Below, one piece after another: positions 4,869-62,779 of a stretch of 64,000 nucleotides of DNA (the stretch's first letter is position 1; each line of letters begins with the position of its first letter). Source of the stretch: an uncultured Enterobacteriaceae bacterium (GTDB lineage Bacteria; Pseudomonadota; Gammaproteobacteria; Ga0077536); contig CAZFZX010000001.1 of NCBI GenBank assembly GCA_964523765.1, positions 28,332 to 92,331 on the forward strand, in the 5' to 3' direction. Made by a program: the position numbers and the translations under genes. Under the pieces are notes generated by a model. That model ran no database searches, was not told the origin of the DNA, and saw only the letters and a list, made by a program, of their open reading frames with translations.

Positions 4869-6160
4869 AACTCCAATCCATTAAAGGGATGAATGATATC
4901 GTCCCGCCGATTACTGGTGCCTGGCAGCGAGCCGAAGAATCGCTTCGCGCGATCCTGGACAGCTACGGATACCGCGAGATCCGCCTACCGGTGATGGAGA
5001 ATACCGCCGTCTTCGCGCGCTCCATCGGTGACGTGACGGATATCGTACAAAAGGAAATGTACACGTTTGAGGATCGAAACGGCGACAGCCTAACGCTGCG
5101 CCCCGAGGGAACCGCCGGCTGCGTGCGGGCAGTTCTCCAAAACGGGCTAGTACATCAGCAGTTCCGAAAGCTTTGGTATACGGGACCGATGTTCCGACAC
5201 GAGCGGCCGCAAAAAGGTCGCTCTCGCCAATTCCACCAGATCGGCGTCGAAGTATTCGATATGCCGGGCCCGGACATCGACGCAGAGCTGATAATGATGA
5301 CGGCTCGAATGTGGGCGGCGCTCGAAGTGACAGATCTTCGACTCGAACTCAACACGCTCGGGACAATGGAAAGCCGTGCGAAATACCGAGAAGTCTTGCT
5401 CCGTTACTTTTCCGCCAACCGAGACCAACTGGATCAGGACAGTTTAGTGCGGCTCGACCGTAACCCGATGCGAATACTCGACAGCAAGAATCCGTCGCTT
5501 GCTGACGTAATCCGGGATGCTCCGGTACTTGAGCAGTATTTGGACGGCCCTTCGCGGGCACATTTCGATCGCTTATGCGAAATCTTGACCCGGGCGGGAG
5601 TCGAATTTCAGCTCAACCCACGTCTCGTCCGAGGCCTCGACTACTATTCCAACACCGTTTTCGAATGGGTGACCGAACGGCTAGGCGCTCAGGGAACGGT
5701 CTGCGCCGGCGGCCGATATGACGGGTTGGTCGAGTTATTGGGCGGTAAGTCGACACCCGCGATCGGTTTCGCTATGGGTCTGGAACGACTCATAGAGCTA
5801 GCCTGGAAGCGGCTTGACGAAGCGGATGACCCAGGCGCAGACGTTTACATTATCTCTACTCACGCCGACTATTGTGTGGACGTTTTGCTCTTGGCCGAGT
5901 CGATTCGGAACGCCATGGGTAATCGGCGTGTGTTGTGCCATTTCGGTGGCGGAAGTATGAAGTCGCAAATGAAAAAGGCGGATCGCGCCGGCGCACAACT
6001 CGCGTTGATCATCGGCGAACGGGAACATCTCGACGGGACTGTGACGATTAAACCCCTGCGCGGCCAAAGCGACCAAGTTACCGTGGCGCGCGACACAGGC
6101 GTCACCACCGTATGCGATTTGCTCTCGGCTCAGCACGGGAACGGTCGGATCACGGTCTGA
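4865..6160 (+). CDS. hisS: histidine--tRNA ligase
   Basis: MKLQSIKGMNDIVP...YGYREIRLPV class II aaRS motifs; 431 aa. Confidence 0.95.
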   Translation: MKLQSIKGMNDIVPPITGAWQRAEESLRAILDSYGYREIRLPVMENTAVFARSIGDVTDIVQKEMYTFEDRNGDSLTLRPEGTAGCVRAVLQNGLVHQQFRKLWYTGPMFRHERPQKGRSRQFHQIGVEVFDMPGPDIDAELIMMTARMWAALEVTDLRLELNTLGTMESRAKYREVLLRYFSANRDQLDQDSLVRLDRNPMRILDSKNPSLADVIRDAPVLEQYLDGPSRAHFDRLCEILTRAGVEFQLNPRLVRGLDYYSNTVFEWVTERLGAQGTVCAGGRYDGLVELLGGKSTPAIGFAMGLERLIELAWKRLDEADDPGADVYIISTHADYCVDVLLLAESIRNAMGNRRVLCHFGGGSMKSQMKKADRAGAQLALIIGEREHLDGTVTIKPLRGQSDQVTVARDTGVTTVCDLLSAQHGNGRITV

Positions 6161-6447
6161 ATCGGTTCCATGCGGTGGGCCGCTAGCGGCTAATGAGCCG
6201 AGACTTCTGGCGAACTTTATGGGACGGGGACGGACAAATCTGGAGGCAGAACTGCAGTTCGTGGAACCGTCAGAGGTTCCCGGCATCGTGAGATTCCGGG
6301 TCGAGAGCATTGTCCGCTATAATGCCGCGCTTCGCGCCGGACGGAGCGAACGCTCGCTGGCCGATCGCGAATCCGAGCGCGGGAACCACGACGCCGAGCC
6401 GAAAACCTTGACCGCGAGCGGCGCATGAAACAGATACCGGGCGCGTC

Positions 6448-28777: not shown

Positions 28778-29417
28778 AGGTTTCGAATTTCTTCAGCACT
28801 TCTCGCATTTGTTGTTCATCCAGGATCACTGGGTCGCCTTGCTGCTTAGCGATGCAATACTGCTTTGCCAATTCTTCGACCTCGATCGCCAACCTTACGG
28901 CGGCGGTCGGCGTCGCACCCAGAGCTAACGCGCCGTGATTTGCGAGCAAACAAGCTCGTCGCCCGTTGAGCGCGGACACCGCGTGGTCCGATAGCTCCTG
29001 CGTTCCGAACGTAGCATAGGGCGCGCAGGGGATCGAATCACCACCCGCTATCGCGACCATATAGTGGAACGCGGGCAGGGACTTTCCCGTACACGCGAGC
29101 GCCGTCGCGTAGCTCGAGTGGGTATGGACGATCGCACGGATTTCCGGCCGGGCGCGGTAGATGCCCTGATGCATCCGCCATTCCGACGACGGCCGCGAGG
29201 TCGGCTCCGGCTCGGGGTTGCGAAGCGACATCGCGACGCACGATTCGATCGTCAACGCGCCCGGCAAAACGCCGGTAGGAGTGATCCAGTAATTTTCCGG
29301 GCCGGCGCGGCAGCTTGCGTTCCCTGCACTCCCGGTATTCAAACCCGCGGCATCGAGATATCGCATTGTCCGCACGAGCTCGGCCACCGGTTCGGCGTTG
29401 AGTTCAGTCGGTTTCAT
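28767..29417 (-). CDS. class II aldolase/adducin family protein (fuculose-phosphate aldolase / Ru5P-4-epimerase-like)
   Basis: LNTGSAGNASCR and AIVHTHSSYATALAC Zn-binding His motifs of class II aldolases. The start codon at 29417 directly abuts the terminal inverted repeat of the repeat element. Confidence 0.85.
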   Translation of the reverse strand: MKPTELNAEPVAELVRTMRYLDAAGLNTGSAGNASCRAGPENYWITPTGVLPGALTIESCVAMSLRNPEPEPTSRPSSEWRMHQGIYRARPEIRAIVHTHSSYATALACTGKSLPAFHYMVAIAGGDSIPCAPYATFGTQELSDHAVSALNGRRACLLANHGALALGATPTAAVRLAIEVEELAKQYCIAKQQGDPVILDEQQMREVLKKFETYGQ

Positions 29418-29571
29418 CTAAAGAATCTCTGATTCATTCTGAGACAGTCGAGTTGCGGCCCGAAACTGCTCAGGTCAAGGCGCGGCGCGGAGACGATAGC
29501 GCCGCAACGCGGACCTGGACGATTTTGGGCGCAAGGCGACATTCCATGAATTGATCAGAGGTTCCCTAAGA
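29418..29571. repeat. copy A of a MITE/REP-like element with ~30-bp terminal inverted repeats; it fills the entire ilvA-aldolase spacer
   Basis: Left end CTAAAGAATCTCTGATTCATTCTGAGACAGTCG and right end CGACATTCCATGAATTGATCAGAGGTTCCCTAAG are inverted repeats. An internal GTTGCGGC...GCCGCAAC stem is present. About 80-85% identical to the 46626-46796 copy. Confidence 0.8.
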
Positions 29572-31086
29572 CTAGCTCAGGAATAACTCGTAAGCGGGAT
29601 TATCGTGTTCTTCCACGTATTCCATGTTCAGATCGGCCAGAAACGCTTGGAATTCCGCACGATCGGCCGGCGGGATCTGGATCCCCATCAAGACGCGCCC
29701 GTAGGCGGCGCCGTGATTGCGATAATGGAACAAGCTGATATTCCAGCGCCCGCCGATCTGGGTCAAGAAATGCAATAACGCGCCCGGCCGTTCCGGAAAT
29801 TCGAACCGCAGCAGCCGCTCGTTCGATATCCCGCCGGCGTGCCCTCCAACCATGTAACGGACATGCATCTTAGCCAGCTCGTTCGCCGAAATGTCGATGA
29901 CCTTGAAACCTTTTTCCTCCAGATTCTCCATCAAGGCTGCTTTTTCGACGTCACCGTGCCGTAGTCGGATGCCCGCGAAGACCACTGCGTTGTCGTGATC
30001 GGAATATCGATAATTGAATTCAGTAATTGCGCGCGCTCCCAGCGCGTGGCAGAAGTGTCGAAAGCTGCCCGGCCGTTCCGGAATGGTGGTTGCGATCAGG
30101 GCCTCACGGTGCTCGCCGAGCGCCGCAAGCTCCGCGATGTGTCGCAACCGGTCGAAGTTCACATTAGCGCCACTGAAGATGGCGACCACGTCGAGTCCGG
30201 AGGCGGACTCCCGTTTCACCCATTGTTTCAGGCCGGCAAGCGCGAGCGCCCCCGCCGGTTCGGCGATCGCGCGAGTATCTTCGAAAATATCCTTAACGGC
30301 GGCACAGATTTCATCGATATTCACGGTAAGTATTTCGTCGACGCAACGCTCCGCGACTCGGAACGTTTCCTCTCCGACCTGCCGAACAGCAGCACCGTCA
30401 GCGAATATGCCGACGCGTTCGAGCGTCACTCGTTTGCCGGCCGCAAGCGCCGACTTCATACTCGCGGCTTCTTCGGCTTCGACCCCGATGATCCGGATCG
30501 ACGGCTCCAGTGCTTTGACATAGGCACCAATCCCGGCGATCAAACCGCCACCGCCGACCGGGACGAATATCGCGTCGATACGGCCCGGATGTTGGCGCAG
30601 GATTTCCATGCCCACGGTCCCCTGCCCGGCGATTACCAACGGGTGATCGTAGGGCGGAATGTAAGTCGAACCGGTTTTCTTGGCGATCACGTGCGCGTGT
30701 TCGCTCGCTTCATCGTAGGTGTTCCCGTGCAGGACGATATCCGCGCCCAGCCGCCGGACGGAAACAATCTTGATCTCAGGGGTAGTTTTCGGCATCACTA
30801 TCGTCGCGCCGACCTGCAACTTCGCAGCGGCCATGGCGACACCTTGTGCGTGATTGCCGGCCGACGCCGTAATTACGCCTTTTTCGCGCTCCGCCTGCGA
30901 AAGTCTTACCATTAGATTGTAGGCGCCGCGGATCTTGTAGGAGAAAACGGGCTGCATGTCCTCCCGCTTTATCCAAACGGCATTGTCAAGACGCCGGCTC
31001 AGCTCCGGAGCGGCCTCCAGCGGCGTTTCGCGGGCGATATCATAGACCGGAGCCTTGAGGATCATCTTTAGGTAATCGTCGAGCAT
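29572..31086 (-). CDS. ilvA: threonine dehydratase, biosynthetic (PLP enzyme with two ACT-like regulatory domains)
   Basis: PVFSYKIRGAYN PLP-lysine motif, GGGGLIAG loop, and a 504 aa length with a C-terminal regulatory domain duplication. Confidence 0.95.
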   Translation of the reverse strand: MLDDYLKMILKAPVYDIARETPLEAAPELSRRLDNAVWIKREDMQPVFSYKIRGAYNLMVRLSQAEREKGVITASAGNHAQGVAMAAAKLQVGATIVMPKTTPEIKIVSVRRLGADIVLHGNTYDEASEHAHVIAKKTGSTYIPPYDHPLVIAGQGTVGMEILRQHPGRIDAIFVPVGGGGLIAGIGAYVKALEPSIRIIGVEAEEAASMKSALAAGKRVTLERVGIFADGAAVRQVGEETFRVAERCVDEILTVNIDEICAAVKDIFEDTRAIAEPAGALALAGLKQWVKRESASGLDVVAIFSGANVNFDRLRHIAELAALGEHREALIATTIPERPGSFRHFCHALGARAITEFNYRYSDHDNAVVFAGIRLRHGDVEKAALMENLEEKGFKVIDISANELAKMHVRYMVGGHAGGISNERLLRFEFPERPGALLHFLTQIGGRWNISLFHYRNHGAAYGRVLMGIQIPPADRAEFQAFLADLNMEYVEEHDNPAYELFLS

Positions 31087-42243: not shown

Positions 42244-42704
42244 GTTGGAACCTTGGATACTACTTTCGAGGTGTCGATGGGCGATCTCGCCGCCAAAGGA
42301 ACTGTCCAGCCACGTGACAAGACGCCGATCCTCCCTGCCTCACATTGTTCGCACCCCATAAGGGCCTCGACATTGCGCGGGTCGACGCGTAGCCACGCTC
42401 GGTCCAGATGACGGCTATGGTATGCGGGCGATCCGGCCCGAAGAGTGTAGCAAAATTGCCATTGCCGCGGCTGCGCTAACGCGATTGTCGGGCGTAGTCA
42501 CCAGAAGCGGTCTCCAAATTATCCACGACGGCGCCGGGAGTCGTTTTTTCGCGATTCAAGGCGACACCGCCATGGTTGACCGGGTGTCAATGAGTGACGA
42601 ACAACGCCCTGGTGCAAAAAATGGCCCAGGGCCGCATGGGTTGTGCCCCCGGACAATTGTGGACGGCAACTCGACTGTCCCCGAATGAATCAGAGGTTCC
42701 CTAA
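42244..42704. repeat. copy C: long or composite, diverged member filling the ptsI-mgtE spacer
   Basis: Clear right terminus CGACTGTCCCCGAATGAATCAGAGGTTCCCTAA (42672-42704), whose CTA is the ptsI stop codon. TIR-like left end GTTGGAACCTTGGAT...GGTGTCG directly abuts the mgtE start codon. An internal segment CGATTCAAGGCGACACCGCCATGGTTGACC matches the element core GCGCAAGGCGACATTCCATGAATTGATC. Confidence 0.55.
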
Positions 42705-46625: not shown

Positions 46626-46796
46626 ATTAGGGGTTTCTTATTCACTCTGGGACGGTCGGGTTGCCGGCTAAAATTGTTCAGGTCAAAGCGCGGCGCGCAG
46701 GTAATAGCCCCAGGACTATTGGCAAGCGCCGCAACGCAGACCGGGCGATTTTAGGCGCAAGGCGAGCTTCCATGAATTGATCAGAGGTTCCTTAGG
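46626..46796. repeat. copy B of the same TIR-bounded element (rpoN-hpf spacer)
   Basis: Aligns end to end with copy A, with a ~19-bp internal insertion. Right terminus ...CCATGAATTGATCAGAGGTTCCTTAGG. Confidence 0.8.
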
Positions 46797-46834
46797 TCAC
46801 TCGGAGCCTGTAAACGGTTAAGCGAAGGCGAAAG

Positions 46835-48325
46835 TCAACGGAGTTGCTTGCGCTCGTTCGAGGGCGGGATCCGCATCGCTTCCCGATACTTGGCAACGGT
46901 CCTGCGAGCCACCTTCACGCCCTGATCGGACAACAACGTCGCTATCTTATTGTCGCTTAGCGGTTTCTGCGTATTCTCGGCCGAAATGAGTTTCTTAATG
47001 ACCGCCCGGATCGCGGTGGAAGATGCTTCGCCACCGAGGGTCGTGCCGACGTGACTGGAGAAGAAGTATTTGAGTTCGTAAAGGCCGCGGGGTGAGTGCA
47101 TGTACTTGCGTGTGGTGACGCGCGAAATAGTCGATTCATGCATACCCAGTACTTCCGCGATATCGTGCAGTACCAAAGGCTTCATTGCTTCTTCGCCGTG
47201 TTCCAAGAACGCCTGCTGCCGTTCTACAATCGCCGTGGCAACCCGCAGTAGCGTTTCGCTACGGCTTTGCAAGCTCTTGATAAACCATTTTGCTTCCTGC
47301 AGATGAGACTTCAAGGAACTGTTGTCCGGACTGTTGTCTGCGCGTCGGACCATGCTAGCGTAGTAGGGATTCACCCTGATTTGGGGTACCGAGTCCGAAT
47401 TCAGCTCGACTTTCCAGCGGCCCTTCTCCTTACGTACGTACACGTCGGGAATAACGTACTCCGGGGGTTTCCCGTTGAACGGGGATCCGGGACGAGGATT
47501 CATGGATTGAATCAAGTCGAGAATGAGCCGTAACTCGTCCTGCGATACTTTTAACCGCCGCATCACCTGAGAGTAGTCGCGTGACCCCAACACCTCCAGG
47601 TGGTCGGCGCAGACCAGTTTCGCCTCTTTCAGCCACAACGTCGAAGAATCAAGCTGTCCGAGCTGCAGCAACAGACATTCGCCCAGATCGCGCGCTGCGA
47701 CCCCGGACGGGTCGAGACCCTGCACCTGCTTTAGGACGGCGGCCGCTTCGTCCTCTTCTATTTGCGTTTCATCCTGCTCGTTGACGGTTTCGCACACGGC
47801 GTCCAAATCAGATTCCAGATATCCGTCATCGTTAAGCATGTCGATAATCGCGAAAGCGATCGCCCGATCGGATTCGGTCAATGACAGCAAATTCAGTTGC
47901 CACAAGAGGTGATCACGCAACGTTTCTTCGGCGCTACGAACGTTTTCAAATTCGGTCTGAATGCCGCTACCCGTACCGATGCCCTGGCCGGTGCCTGGAG
48001 GCGCAGCGCTATCGTAGATTTCGTCCCAGTCGGTATCGACCGGCAGATCTTGGGGGATATCCTCAGTAGTGCTTTCGACGACGTCGCTTTCGCCGCCCTC
48101 ATCAGCAAATTCCGCTTCCTCTTTCTCGGGCGAGGTTTCTTCGGCCTGTTCGCCGTCCGGACTTGCGCTATCCTCGTCCAGCTCCAGCATCATGTTCGAG
48201 TCCAGCGCGTCCTGCACTTCCACGCCCAATTCAAGCGATGACAATTGCAGCAGCCTTATCGCCTGCTGCAATTGGGGTGTCATCGTCAGGTGCTGTCCTA
48301 ACTTGAGCTGGATGGACTGCTTCAT
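46835..48325 (-). CDS. rpoN: RNA polymerase sigma-54 factor
   Basis: N-terminal Gln/Leu-rich region I, acidic region, C-terminal HTH and RpoN box (ARRTVAKYRE). Confidence 0.95.
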   Translation of the reverse strand: MKQSIQLKLGQHLTMTPQLQQAIRLLQLSSLELGVEVQDALDSNMMLELDEDSASPDGEQAEETSPEKEEAEFADEGGESDVVESTTEDIPQDLPVDTDWDEIYDSAAPPGTGQGIGTGSGIQTEFENVRSAEETLRDHLLWQLNLLSLTESDRAIAFAIIDMLNDDGYLESDLDAVCETVNEQDETQIEEDEAAAVLKQVQGLDPSGVAARDLGECLLLQLGQLDSSTLWLKEAKLVCADHLEVLGSRDYSQVMRRLKVSQDELRLILDLIQSMNPRPGSPFNGKPPEYVIPDVYVRKEKGRWKVELNSDSVPQIRVNPYYASMVRRADNSPDNSSLKSHLQEAKWFIKSLQSRSETLLRVATAIVERQQAFLEHGEEAMKPLVLHDIAEVLGMHESTISRVTTRKYMHSPRGLYELKYFFSSHVGTTLGGEASSTAIRAVIKKLISAENTQKPLSDNKIATLLSDQGVKVARRTVAKYREAMRIPPSNERKQLR

Positions 48326-58456: not shown

Positions 58457-59017
58457 TCAATAAAGGATCTCTACGCGCCTATTTAGCGCGTAGGATTCCT
58501 CATCGTGGCCTTCTGTCGCCGGGCGCTCCTCGCCGTAACTCACGGCTCTAATCTGCCCCGCCGAAGCGCCTAGCAATACCAACTGCTTACGTACGCCCAA
58601 GGCTCTTCTTTCACCGAGCGCAAGATTATATTCACGCGACCCGCGTTCGTCCGCATGCCCCTCCAAGGAGATTTCAACACCCGGGTTCCCGGCCAGGTAG
58701 GCCGCGTGCGCCTCTATTGTGCCGCGAAACTCTTCTCGTACCGTGCTCTGATCATAGTCGAAATAAATGACCCGAACGGAAAGCGGTCCGTCCGGATCAT
58801 TGGGATCGCCGAGAGCGCTGCTCGACAAGGGATCGACATCTTCCAAGCCCTGGGTTCGAGCCGCCGAATCAATAGCGTCCATTTCATCGCTCGATATTCC
58901 ACGGTCCTCGACTGAAGCGCGAGTTGCATCTGAATCTTTCGTCTTGGACCCTCCGCAGCCCACGATCAGAAGGGCGAGTAACGCCACCGGGATCCACTTT
59001 AAGCTCGCCATTGTCAT
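58457..59017 (-). CDS. pal: peptidoglycan-associated lipoprotein
   Basis: Lipobox LIVGCGG and an OmpA-like domain (EGHADERGSREYNLALGERRA). Confidence 0.9.
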   Translation of the reverse strand: MTMASLKWIPVALLALLIVGCGGSKTKDSDATRASVEDRGISSDEMDAIDSAARTQGLEDVDPLSSSALGDPNDPDGPLSVRVIYFDYDQSTVREEFRGTIEAHAAYLAGNPGVEISLEGHADERGSREYNLALGERRALGVRKQLVLLGASAGQIRAVSYGEERPATEGHDEESYALNRRVEILY

Positions 59018-59116: not shown

Positions 59117-60430
59117 CTATTTTCGTATCGGCCCCCATGCCGGTTCGCGCACTTCGCCTTTTTGCAGGGCCAAACGCTGGCGCACTCGCCCATCGACCGA
59201 AACCGCGGCCAATTCGGCTCCGGTTTTGCCCATTGTCGCATAAATTATCATCGCGCCGTTCGGCGCGAAGCTTGGCGATTCGTCGAGGCGCGCGTCGGTC
59301 AATATATCGAAATGATCCTTCTCCAGATCAACTAATGCGATGCGATAACCCTTGTCGCCGCCGTTGACCACGGCCATCAAACTGCCGTCCGGCGACAGGC
59401 TGGCCCGCGAATTGTAGTTTCCCATGTTGAACGTCTGGCGCTCGGGCTTTCCTCCGCCAACAGCGAGACGATAGATTTGGGGGCCGCCGCCGCGGTCCGA
59501 GGTAAACATGATGTGGCGCCCATCCGGTGTCCAGCGGGCTTCGGTGTCGATTGCCGGGTGGGTCGTTAGCCGCCGCTTCTTGCCAGTGCTCAAATCCAGT
59601 ACGTAAATATCGGGATTACCGTCGAGCGAGCGCGTAAGAGCCAGACGGCGGCCGTCAGGAGAAAAGGCAGGAGAACTGTTGATGCCACGACCCGCCGCTA
59701 CTTTTTCCCGTTGCCCGGTTCGTATATTTTGGACGTAGACGGCCGAGTTTCGCTCCTCGAAGGATACATAGGCCAGTCGGTCGCCCAGCGGCGACCAATC
59801 GGGCGACAACAGCGGCTCGCGTGACTCCAGGATCGTACGTGCATTATGGCCGTCCGAATCGGCAATCTGCAGTTGGTAACGGGTTTGGTTTTTACCAAGT
59901 TTCTCAACGGTAACGTAGGCAATCCGCGTCGCGAACGCTCCTTTCATCTTAAGAATCGCCTCGAAGATAATATCGCTGATATGGTGCGCCGTTAAACGGA
60001 GGTTCGCGATATTCGTCGGGATCCGAAACCCGGCGAGCTGTTTCGCCGTAATCACGTCGATGACGCGGAACTCGACTGCGAAAAGCGCCTCGCCGATTTG
60101 TTTGACTTGTCCGACCACCAGGTTATCCATTCCCAGTAAACGCCAATCCTTGAAATTGATTTCGGCGAAGGATCCCGGCCGCGACGGCAGATCGGCGGCT
60201 GGCATCGGTAGGAACCGCCCGCTGCGTCGCAAATCTGCGGAAACGACCGCGCTCACGTCCTCCGGCGGAACGACTTCAGCCTGCCAATCGAACGGCACGA
60301 TAGCGATGGGCAGCGCACTCTCGATACCCTGAGTGATCCGGATTTCCAACAATTCGCGAGATTGCGCGGGCATCGCTACGGCGGCGAATATCAAAATGAT
60401 GGATAACAAAAGTATGCTGAACAATTTCAC
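59117..60430 (-). CDS. tolB: Tol-Pal system beta-propeller protein TolB
   Basis: Signal peptide plus an N-domain and a 6-bladed propeller with repeated SP(A/D)WSPDG motifs. Confidence 0.95.
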   Translation of the reverse strand: MKLFSILLLSIILIFAAVAMPAQSRELLEIRITQGIESALPIAIVPFDWQAEVVPPEDVSAVVSADLRRSGRFLPMPAADLPSRPGSFAEINFKDWRLLGMDNLVVGQVKQIGEALFAVEFRVIDVITAKQLAGFRIPTNIANLRLTAHHISDIIFEAILKMKGAFATRIAYVTVEKLGKNQTRYQLQIADSDGHNARTILESREPLLSPDWSPLGDRLAYVSFEERNSAVYVQNIRTGQREKVAAGRGINSSPAFSPDGRRLALTRSLDGNPDIYVLDLSTGKKRRLTTHPAIDTEARWTPDGRHIMFTSDRGGGPQIYRLAVGGGKPERQTFNMGNYNSRASLSPDGSLMAVVNGGDKGYRIALVDLEKDHFDILTDARLDESPSFAPNGAMIIYATMGKTGAELAAVSVDGRVRQRLALQKGEVREPAWGPIRK

Positions 60431-60433
60431 GAA

Positions 60434-61273
60434 TTACTGCTCCGGATCGAAAACGAATATTATTTCACGCATGCGTTGAAACAGCCGCGGATCAGACGGT
60501 ATAGGCAACGGTGCGGCTTTACGCAAAGCATTCTCCGCCTGCCGATCGAAAGCCGCGTTTCCGCTGGATTGAGTCACCTGCGCGTCCACGACCTCTCCGC
60601 CGGGAATGATACGTACGTATAGCGTGCAGTTGAGTCCGTCTTCAAGGTCAGGGTAGATAAAAACACTGGCTACTTTCGTTCTTATGGCCTCTATGTAACG
60701 AGCGATCTCGGCGTCGTCGGTGCGCCGTTGTTCCTCGACCTCATTTTCTTTCTCCTCATTAGCGAGCGCTTCGCGCAGCGCTTCCACCTCTTGACGCGCC
60801 TTTTGCTCTTCGAGTTTCCTTAAGTTCTCGGCGAGCCGCCGCTTTTCTTCCTCCGCTTTGCGCTTGTCTTCTTGGGCCTTTTCCCGCGCCCGCTCTTCTT
60901 TCCGTTCGCGCTCGGCAAGGCGCAATTTTTCCCTCTCCAATTTTTTCTTTTCCGCCGCGATTCTTCGTTTTTGTTCGACCTGCGCTTTCTTCAATTCTTT
61001 CAGCTTCTGCTCTTCGGCGCGCCGCTTCTTTTGAGCTTCCGCAGCCTTCTTTTCGGCCTCCCGCCGCTTCTGGTCCTCGGCGTCTTTGAGCCGGCGTGCT
61101 TCTTCCTCGATCGCTCTTTGATCCACGACACGGGCTTTCACAATCGGTGTCACGACCGCCGGGGCGGGATCAGATTGAGACTTCATGTCCGTGGTTGTAA
61201 CAAGTACCAACACGACGATCGCGTGCAACACGAGCGCGTAGGCGAACGCGCGTGATTTTCCGATTCGACCCAT
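60434..61273 (-). CDS. tolA: Tol-Pal system protein TolA
   Basis: N-terminal TM anchor, a long Lys/Glu/Ala-rich helical domain II and a conserved C-terminal domain. Confidence 0.85.
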   Translation of the reverse strand: MGRIGKSRAFAYALVLHAIVVLVLVTTTDMKSQSDPAPAVVTPIVKARVVDQRAIEEEARRLKDAEDQKRREAEKKAAEAQKKRRAEEQKLKELKKAQVEQKRRIAAEKKKLEREKLRLAERERKEERAREKAQEDKRKAEEEKRRLAENLRKLEEQKARQEVEALREALANEEKENEVEEQRRTDDAEIARYIEAIRTKVASVFIYPDLEDGLNCTLYVRIIPGGEVVDAQVTQSSGNAAFDRQAENALRKAAPLPIPSDPRLFQRMREIIFVFDPEQ

Positions 61274-61485
61274 TACCGTGCAGGCCCGCGAAAAACCTTC
61301 ATGACGCGCCGGTTCTCACGCTGCAACAGGCGCTGGTTTTCGGCGCCGCATGCGCGTCGCTTGGCGCCCCGGGTCCACGGTACGAATTCTGCTTGATTTG
61401 CCGGCGCTTATTGCAGGGCGGCGTACTGCCATAGTCAGATTTCCAATAGTCCTTCCGGATTCCGGACAAATATCCCGCCCGATTG

Positions 61486-61654
61486 CCCAGGGGAACCTCC
61501 GATTTATTCGTGGAACGTCGCCTCGCGCCCAAAACCTTTCAGTCTGCGTTGCGTGGCGGCCTATAGTCATAGTCATTACCCCCGCGCCCCGCCTCGGCCT
61601 GAACGATTTTGGCCGGTAAATCGACTGTCCAAGAACAAATCACGGGTTCCTTAG
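61486..61654. repeat. copy D of the element, inverted relative to A-C (tolR-tolA spacer inside the tolQRAB operon)
   Basis: CCCAGGGGAACCTCCGATTTATTCGTGGAACGTCGCC ... CGACTGTCCAAGAACAAATCACGGGTTCCTTAG aligns over its whole length with the reverse complement of copy A. The terminal CCTTAG contains the tolR TAA stop codon. Confidence 0.75.
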
Positions 61655-62076
61655 TTCTCCGGGGGCTCCGTGACGAGACCGACACTCTCCACCCCGGCGC
61701 CTTGCAACATTGCCATCGCGGCTACGACTCGACCGTAAGGGACGCCGCGATCACCTTTGATCAAAAACTGAATGTCGGGACGATATTTCAATAGGCCGGC
61801 GACGCGCTTGGCCAGCGTCTGATCATCGACCGCTTCGTTGGGGTCGTCTCCATAGTCGATATAAACGGCGCCGCCGGCATCGACGGTGACCATCACGGGC
61901 TCCTGTTGCGACGGCGGAATCACTTCTGAGGGTGCCTGCGGCAGGTCAATCTTGACACCTTGGGTGATCAAAGGCGCCGTGATCATGAAAATGATCAGCA
62001 ATACCAACATCACGTCGATATACGGTACCACGTTGATCTCCGCCATCAAGCGAGCGCGTGAACGTCGATATTTCAT
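61651..62076 (-). CDS. tolR: Tol-Pal system protein TolR (ExbD family)
   Basis: EINVVPYIDVMLVLLIIFM TM motif; 141 aa. The TAA stop lies inside the repeat-element terminus. Confidence 0.9.
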   Translation of the reverse strand: MKYRRSRARLMAEINVVPYIDVMLVLLIIFMITAPLITQGVKIDLPQAPSEVIPPSQQEPVMVTVDAGGAVYIDYGDDPNEAVDDQTLAKRVAGLLKYRPDIQFLIKGDRGVPYGRVVAAMAMLQGAGVESVGLVTEPPEN

Positions 62077-62083
62077 CGGCCGC

Positions 62084-62779
62084 TCAAGCGTGCGCCTGCC
62101 GTTGCAATATCGCGGAGAATTCTTCCAGGAAGATTTCGTAGCTAGCGTAAAGCCGATCGATCTCGCTCGAAAAACGATTGTAGCCGATGACCGCCGGGAT
62201 GGCCGCGAACAAACCCATAGCCGTTGCCACCAGTGCCTCGGAGATCCCGGGCGCCACCATGGCCAGGGTTGCTTGATGCACGTTCCCCAAAGCCTGAAAC
62301 GAATTCATGATCCCCCATACCGTGCCGAACAAACCGACGTAGGGGCTCACCGAACCAACTGTTGCGAGTATCGGCAGGTTTGCTTCGAGCACCTCCAGCT
62401 GCCGGCTCACGGCGATCCGCATCGCGCGTTGGGTACCGTCGAGGACCGCGGCCGCGTCAAAACCTTCGCGGTTGTGCAAGCGGGCATATTCCTTGAACCC
62501 CGCTTCGAAAATCTTCTCCATTCCGTCGGCCGTCCCCCGTTTTCCGGTCACCCGGTTGAACAGCGCGGTGAGATCTTCGGCCGCCCTGAACTGGTCTTCG
62601 AAAAGCCGCGCCTCGCGTTTCGACGAGCGTAGTTCGCGGCGCTTAATGAATATCAGGGTCCATGAGGCCACCGATGCGACCAGCAAGACGATCATGACCA
62701 ACTTGACGAGGAAACTAGCCCCGATGATCAGGCTCGTGATCGACAGATCAGCATGCATTGCATACCTCCATATAGACAT
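62084..62779 (-). CDS. tolQ: Tol-Pal system protein TolQ (MotA/ExbB family)
   Basis: 231 aa with 3 TM helices and a conserved C-terminal ...GLFAAIPAVIGYN segment. Confidence 0.95.
   Translation of the reverse strand: MSIWRYAMHADLSITSLIIGASFLVKLVMIVLLVASVASWTLIFIKRRELRSSKREARLFEDQFRAAEDLTALFNRVTGKRGTADGMEKIFEAGFKEYARLHNREGFDAAAVLDGTQRAMRIAVSRQLEVLEANLPILATVGSVSPYVGLFGTVWGIMNSFQALGNVHQATLAMVAPGISEALVATAMGLFAAIPAVIGYNRFSSEIDRLYASYEIFLEEFSAILQRQAHA

Follow-up and report, generated by a model that had tools for sequence, protein, structure and literature searches.

The tolR and tolA genes in the 64-kb stretch of DNA that was analysed here (the window) are separated by one copy, designated copy D, of a short repeated element, which is very probably (about 88%) an old non-autonomous MITE of the IS5 type whose overlap with the tolR stop codon is a by-product of the choice of a YTAR target. 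The stop codon belongs to the target duplication and is not a signal brought in by the element. The tolQ, tolR, tolA, tolB, and pal genes are all carried on the minus strand, and copy D lies among them as follows:

62084-62779, minus strand: tolQ
61651-62076, minus strand: tolR (141 aa, ExbD family)
61651-61654, minus strand: left target-site duplication of copy D (CTAA on the minus strand)
61492-61650, minus strand: core of MITE copy D (159 nt; nhmmer E=4e-54)
61616-61650, minus strand: left terminal inverted repeat of copy D (GGAACCCGTGATTTGTTCTTGGACAGTCG...)
61492-61526, plus strand: right terminal inverted repeat of copy D (the plus strand reads GGAACCTCCGATTTATTCGTGGAACGTCG...)
61274-61491, minus strand: rest of the tolR-tolA spacer (218 nt, unique)
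60434-61273, minus strand: tolA (279 aa; ATG 61271-61273)
59117-60430, minus strand: tolB
58457-59017, minus strand: pal

The preliminary description of this DNA, which was made from the sequence alone, had called the gap between tolR and tolA unusually long and had placed an element copy in it, and both statements were borne out. The spacing of 377 nt is the longest seen, as the median in 75 related species is 6 nt and the maximum 178 nt, and the profile search located copy D in the tolR-proximal part of the gap. The tolA start used for this measurement is the earliest one past an in-frame TGA, and the N-terminus that it gives (GKSRAF...) agrees with those of the relatives. In the six closest relatives, whose TolR proteins are 79-86% identical, the tolR-tolA spacers are 11, 11, 11, 29, 45, and 55 nt long, and none of the six has the MITE between the two genes. 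Nor was the element found, by a strict regular expression and the family profile, in 80 species-level tolR loci, which are mostly those of distant relatives. Within the same population, no empty tolR-tolA allele occurs among the examined contigs that encode an identical TolR and reach past tolR; all of these contigs carry the element, one of them (L087) just its first 33 nt. In L087 (2712-2877), the 33 nt of the element following the identical TolR give way to divergent sequence (CTTAGGAAACCTGTTCATAGCG...) and the contig end, and this contig comes either from a variant strain in which a solo inverted repeat is present or from chimeric assembly through the repeat; in addition, ybgC and tolQ are called on it at lengths unlike those on the other contigs.

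At the tolR end of copy D, the minus strand reads ...GAG AAC TAA GGAACCCGTGATTTGTTCTTGGACAGTCG..., in which the TAA occupies 61651-61653 and position 61654 completes the Asn codon with which tolR ends. The TAA had been described as part of the terminal repeat; it does flank the core directly, but it belongs to the CTAA duplication and is outside the inverted repeat. The closest relatives terminate tolR with CGT TAA in three cases (TTAA), with CGT TAG or CTT TAG in two (TTAG), and with AAC TGA in one. The stop codon therefore lies within a YTAR at the same position in five of the six, all of which are without the element there. The idea that the terminus of the element supplies the tolR stop is thus misleading, since the TAA is in the duplicated target and YTAR stops are also present in relatives, for tolR in these five and for ptsI in two. 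The identity of copy D to the family consensus is 81.5%, compared with approximately 92% for copies A and B described below, and copy D is therefore taken to be an older insertion.

An nhmmer profile built from the three best copies and run on the window detected three full copies, namely D (span of the match 61484-61654, E=4e-54), B (46628-46799, E=1e-53), and A (29418-29573, E=2e-47), as well as two partial ones, C (42648-42702) and E (6115-6280). The four copies outside the tol cluster are:

29418-29569, plus strand: MITE copy A (CTAA 29418-29421, core 29422-29565, CTAA 29566-29569)
46627-46795, plus strand: MITE copy B (TTAG 46627-46630, core 46631-46791, TTAG 46792-46795)
42648-42704, minus strand: MITE copy C, truncated (TTAG duplication 42701-42704 and a left-type inverted repeat)
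6115-6280, plus strand: MITE copy E, degenerate (weak match, E=0.019)

Copy A is located between ilvA (TAG 29572-29574) and an aldolase gene (ATG 29415-29417), and copy B between rpoN and hpf, 39 nt from the rpoN TGA (46835-46837) and with no overlap with that stop. Copy E is near the hisS stop (6158-6160), on its downstream side, with the right inverted repeat alone still recognisable.

These copies belong to a much larger family. Scanning of the metagenome with the inverted-repeat pattern gave 60 loci, and subsequent use of the family profile gave 67 non-overlapping matches in them, of which 43 are full-length (39 distinct). The core is 144-164 bp long and near-palindromic throughout, with terminal inverted repeats of roughly 30-45 bp, in which GGAACCTCTGATTCATTCTGGGACAGTCG... 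pairs with ...CGACGTTCCATGAATTGATCAGAGGTTCC, and a match is likewise obtained between the profile and its own reverse strand (E=1e-12). The ends are sharp when aligned, with the core GGAACCTCTGATTCATTCTGGGACAGTCG ... CGACGTTCCATGAATTGATCAGAGGTTCC having YTAR (CTAA, CTAG, TTAG, or TTAA) on both sides, and the termini GGAACCTCTGATTC...GAGGTTCC are bordered by this tetranucleotide in duplicate. The element has no coding capacity, its only open reading frames being Arg-rich shadow frames. The intergenic location is near-strict, with only 1 of 49 elements in a called gene, and the elements are oriented without bias with respect to co-directional neighbour genes (7 sense, 8 antisense). In being shorter than ~300 bp, multi-copy, and non-coding, and in having terminal inverted repeats, a target duplication, and filled versus empty sites, the family has the properties by which bacterial MITEs are recognised. 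Searches of the whole window against Rfam gave zero matches at the gathering score, and the consensus gave matches at chance level only when it was compared by blastn with 72,556 plasmids.

Several related structures were also observed. Mini-variants of ~80-95 bp consist of little beyond two inverted repeats back to back and were located at:

5103-5197 of L102: mini-variant
1850-1930 of L116: mini-variant
2154-2235 of L130: mini-variant
11338-11418 of L151: mini-variant
944-1007 of L150: mini-variant

Another palindromic element with a related terminus (GGAACCTCTGAACAAGTCATGAC...) occupies positions 1-135 of L101 and adjoins a MITE copy, the CTAA being common to both; possibly it represents another MITE family that is moved by a transposase of the same type. 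In a relative whose TolR is 84% identical, the ruvA-ruvB spacer contains a weak profile match (L093 657-778, E=2.8e-5), and in L083-L086, from the same population, the ruvA-ruvB gap is also unusually long and contains a called 81-aa open reading frame without a Pfam match. Lone inverted repeats in L127, L136, and L152 have only housekeeping genes as neighbours. A parent IS beside them was therefore rejected, and they are regarded as solo or half elements.

The association of the elements with stop codons can be explained by the composition of the target. Whichever strand is read, any YTAR includes a TAA or a TAG, and because YTAR is duplicated on insertion, an insertion on a TAA or TAG stop preceded by a pyrimidine regenerates the stop. 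When genes were called with a codon-usage-scored gene caller, with YTAR sites in permissible space as controls, the stop of a called gene was found in the duplication of 12 of the 67 elements and at 111 of 753 control YTAR sites (14.8%; binomial p=0.49). The overlap with stops is thus the share expected from the available YTAR sites, and neither an additional preference for stops nor trimming is needed to account for it. Of the target preference for stop-proximal TTAG/CTAA sites that had been proposed, the insertion at, and duplication of, YTAR stood, while the preference for stop codons did not. The open reading frames ending in the duplication are real genes with native ends, because 8 of 10 have Pfam domains, several of which reach within ~15 residues of the C-terminus. 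Called starts located 0-6 nt from the duplication are found for 4 of the 67 elements, compared with 4.0% of the control sites (p=0.34). Insertions beside starts are tolerated and not enriched.

Copies A and C illustrate these relationships. As had been claimed, the aldolase ATG directly adjoins the CTAA at the left end of copy A, and this start codon is backed by homologues of 219-222 aa with 100% query coverage. The TTAG-ATG adjacency is ancestral, as it is also seen in a relative (L160). For copy C, it was correctly noted that the ptsI stop is located at the end of the element, the TAG (42701-42703) being situated in the flanking TTAG duplication; two relatives without the element there end ptsI with ACC TAA (CTAA) at the same codon position. 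The comparison of the ptsI-mgtE junction thus found the ptsI stop in a YTAR in the absence of the element, and on the other side it found a native mgtE leader and no element end. Copy C is confined to the ptsI side and does not reach mgtE, so the suggestion that its repeat and an AAGG adjoin the mgtE ATG proved to be wrong: this sequence is native and is kept in two relatives that are element-free at the junction (GATCCAAGGTTCCAA-ATG in L158 and L159, compared with TATCCAAGGTTCCAAC-ATG in the window). The terminal inverted repeat profile gave no match to the mgtE-proximal stretch even with a search space of 100 nt. The ptsI-mgtE spacer is naturally long in relatives (238-261 nt), and the possibility that copy C is a long variant of 462 bp extending up to mgtE was rejected, since the central and mgtE-proximal parts align with the ancestral spacer of the relatives. 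A block in this spacer (window 42444-42475, minus strand CGCAGCCGCGGCAATGGCAATTTTGCTACACT) is kept in L157 and L159 (CGCAGCCCCGG...GCAAATTTGCTACACT), and it may be a promoter or leader element of mgtE. In a complete relative genome (ctg125262, 3.46 Mb), the ptsI-mgtE spacer has an insertion with a Mu-like/rve transposase, and nadA is split by an insertion that includes a gene with a faint match to IS1-type transposases (the stretches concerned are L158 9137-11239 and L096 1263-5633). Mobile elements of different kinds have repeatedly landed at these intergenic and operon sites.

It could alternatively be argued that the element termini are adaptive translation signals and that the family is kept at gene boundaries for the stop codons and Shine-Dalgarno sequences provided by CAGAGGTTCC and YTAR. 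With the outward end ...CAGAGGTTCC-YTAR, an ATG adjoining the duplication obtains a GAGG at -12 to -9, as is the case for the aldolase gene at copy A, and a ribosome-binding role for the element end is possible. For the four starts located 0-6 nt from the duplication, any ribosome-binding site must be inside the element, and insertions adjacent to starts are not depleted relative to the control sites. However, the stops are in the duplicated target, where most element-free relatives already have TAA or TAG (five of six for tolR), and elements are enriched neither at stops nor at starts. Furthermore, a family maintained for such signals is difficult to reconcile with the lack of orientation bias and with the native origin of the mgtE AAGG, and at the tolR-tolA junction itself a distance of 218 nt separates the element end from the tolA ATG, to which it therefore cannot contribute a ribosome-binding site. 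We therefore consider this explanation unlikely. A more far-reaching proposal, to which we would likewise give long odds, is that the outward CAGAGGTTCC and YTAR constitute a portable stop and Shine-Dalgarno cassette and that, with it, the hairpin and the 218-nt spacer in the tol cluster rewired the expression of tolA. If this were true, the cassette would let the family colonise operon junctions nearly devoid of spacer, such as ilvA-aldolase and tolR-tolA, without polar damage, and the rewiring of tolA could occur, for instance, via RNase III processing or by uncoupling from the translation of tolR.

YTAR was found at 92 of 107 distinct element ends, and of the 27 copies that are flanked by it at both ends, 16 have the same tetranucleotide on the left and on the right. 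The left and right flanks are correlated at position 1 (Fisher p=3.7e-4) and at position 4 (p=0.021), and this co-variation indicates a 4-bp target duplication and not a duplication of TA. An empty site was also identified. In L160, the ilvA-aldolase junction reads ...cctgagc TAA gcTTAG ATG, with a spacer of 6 nt, while the window reads ...cctgagc TAG tc TTAG [element] TTAG ATG. Removal of copy A and one TTAG from the window gives ...cctgagc TAG tcTTAG ATG, in agreement with the single TTAG of L160. The comparison of this junction therefore showed that TTAG-ATG was already there without the element, although the ilvA stop is TAA in L160 and TAG in the window.

The same flanks could in principle have been produced by a MITE of the IS630/Tc1 type, which duplicates TA, if the outer Y and R reflected a target preference together with bases carried by the element. 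The IS630 target preference is CTAG, and ~40% of the copies have YTAR flanks that are not identical. Moreover, MITEs flanked by TA, such as Correia and RUP, are the commonest kind in bacteria (PMC2229807). On the other hand, a 2-bp duplication would not give rise to the co-variation of positions 1 and 4, the L160 empty site has one TTAG where the window has two, and the co-resident IS with matching ends encodes an IS5-family N-terminus. This alternative is consequently very unlikely. An origin from the IS701 family was rejected as well, because its published end consensus, ---YACT-Y--YR (PMC2266710), is not seen in the ends of the element (GGAACCTCTGAT), even though a 4-bp duplication would be compatible with it.

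To our knowledge, the IS5 of E. coli has no match to the inverted-repeat sequence of the MITE. The relationship to IS5 is instead suggested by the target, by the ends, and by an IS that is found on metagenome contigs bearing the MITE, though not in the window. It has been reported that IS5 duplicates a Py-T-A-Pu target (PMC5493358), and the MITE family has the 4-bp Py-T-A-Pu duplication (CTAG, CTAA, TTAG, TTAA) of IS5-derived elements as well as ends that start with GGAA, as in IS5 and IS5-derived MITEs. The IS is multi-copy, with the terminus GGAACTTCTGAATAAGTCATCGATCTG... (start GGAACTTCTGAATAAGTCATCG, GGAACTTCTGA...), and its end GGAACTTCTGAATAAGTCATCG... shares 10 of its first 11 nt, and 18 of 23 nt overall, with the MITE terminus. 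This end was found at six different sites, with a YTAR flank at each. Termini of the IS were noted at:

1-173 of L147: IS terminus
5347-5485 of L154: IS terminus
1-26 of L124: IS terminus
6110-6218 of L106: IS terminus
6014-6154 of L104: IS terminus
1-142 of L127: IS terminus

An open reading frame (MSKQLTLGEGFEKYAKTTRRGQFLNEMDSIIPWAEL) begins ~60 nt inside the IS end, and its 36-aa N-terminal fragment matches plasmid genes annotated as 'IS5 family transposase' (tblastn E=2e-5, 54% identity); no NCBIfam model was matched by this fragment, probably because it is too short. The family is accompanied by an IS whose terminus is closely related to its own and whose first open reading frame is like the N-termini of IS5-family transposases, and it differs from IS5 in being ~160 bp long and non-coding. 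The IS is seen through its terminal 60-170 nt at the ends of the stored stretches, in which neither its full length nor a DDE domain is present. It is plausible, from the similarity of the ends (18 of 23 nt) and the shared target, that this IS is the source of the transposase that mobilises the MITE. In three cases an IS terminus and a MITE end have the flanking YTAR in common, which suggests that regenerated duplications are re-used as targets.

The preliminary description had further suggested that the elements precisely fill intergenic space and that selection trims the insertions to gene boundaries. The first statement applies to copy A, and it does not apply to copies B, C, and D; trimming is not needed, because the precise fit of copy A results from the ancestral ilvA-aldolase spacer of 6 nt. 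The corresponding explanation, that larger insertions were trimmed back to gene boundaries by selection or deletion and now appear to fit precisely, might draw on the truncation of copy C, on the absence of a right duplication at copy D, and on the short variants of ~80-95 bp with their two inverted repeats back to back. It is nevertheless highly improbable, as copies A and B and ~40 others keep duplicated YTAR directly at the inverted repeats, which would not be expected after trimming, and as copies B, C, and D leave spacers unfilled.

Copy D fills 159 of the 377 nt, and sequence that is unique and unrelated to it makes up the remaining 218 nt. The right target duplication is missing, with CCTG at 61488-61491 where CTAA is expected, and no YTAR was found when the sequence of 61274-61491 was inspected by eye. 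By blastn, the 218 nt matched only themselves and contigs from the same population, and they showed no match to the MITE family profile. They were also not similar to the spacers of 45-55 nt found in the closest relatives, in which ...AATTGAAT.C.GG.CC-ATG is shared. A second element or other repeat was rejected as their source, because there is no copy elsewhere, no profile match, and no YTAR. Similarly, the GTAA at the tolA ATG was rejected as the right duplication, with an ancestral TAATG overlap, since there is no inverted repeat next to it. The 218 nt are accounted for by neither the element nor the ancestral spacer, and the loss of the right duplication together with this unique DNA means that at least one further event is needed at copy D.

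The RNA of copy D on the tol strand is predicted to fold into a single long hairpin (-74 kcal/mol, z=-5.15). This hairpin and the strictly intergenic location of the family (1 of 49 in a called gene) would be in keeping with a repeat of structural or regulatory function that was spread by recombination, for example a palindrome of the REP/BIME kind, a terminator, or a hairpin that stabilises mRNA. Such an origin is hardly tenable in the face of the target duplications and the empty site, the matching IS end, the lack of orientation bias, and the absence of a U-tract or terminator on the tol strand and of an Rfam match. An intrinsic terminator was rejected specifically, since no U-tract follows the copy D hairpin, the next sequence being CCUGGGCAAUCGG, and no terminator-like site was found on the minus strand from 61150 to 61750; no promoter-like site was found on the tol (minus) strand either. 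REP/BIME sequences, which are GC-rich palindromes of 20-40 nt without duplications, were rejected because of the ~160-bp length, the inverted repeats, and the duplications.

Families of similar size are known from other bacteria (PMC2229807, PMC3184786, PMC10969869). The Correia/NEMIS elements of Neisseria are hairpin MITEs of ~100-160 bp that are co-transcribed with neighbouring genes and in which signals for expression or target sites for RNase III can be present (PMC2229807, PMC10969869). They resemble the present family, which is known from sequence alone, in forming hairpins and in their intergenic and intra-operon positions, but they duplicate TA and are unrelated in sequence. ERIC/YPAL elements are likewise near-palindromic throughout (127-168 bp), intergenic, and transcribed within operons, but they have other target sites (YPAL duplications range from 3 to 26 bp), another host range, and no sequence similarity, as judged from the absence of an Rfam match. 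[quoted passage not shown]

Taken as an IS5-type MITE, copy D would have used as its target a CTAA to which the final tolR codon contributes its third base and the stop codon its TAA (AAC|TAA). The YTAR would have been duplicated on insertion, as with IS5, and one CTAA would have stayed on the tolR side, and therefore tolR would retain its stop and exact length, while the element would have displaced tolA from tolR. Mobilisation may have occurred in trans by the transposase of the co-resident IS. At very short operon junctions, the stop codon may often be the sole YTAR that is harmless to disrupt, and the overlap with stops would then reflect target choice combined with purifying selection against insertions inside genes. 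The hairpin would be transcribed by read-through as part of the tol mRNA; the tight translational coupling of tolR and tolA in the relatives would have been lost, and tolA might depend on its own weak initiation region.

Stops located 'inside' repeat ends can therefore be explained by a simple rule, the duplication of YTAR, and even operon junctions that are only a few bases long tolerate insertions. The elements very probably represent an abundant MITE family that had not been described before, with a candidate partner of the IS5 family, in Gammaproteobacteria of the sulfur-cycle type that are uncultured. For annotation, the lesson is that such repeats break assemblies and inflate intergenic gaps, and the 377-nt gap between tolR and tolA is accordingly best regarded as a secondary insertion and not as an inherited ancestral regulatory region.
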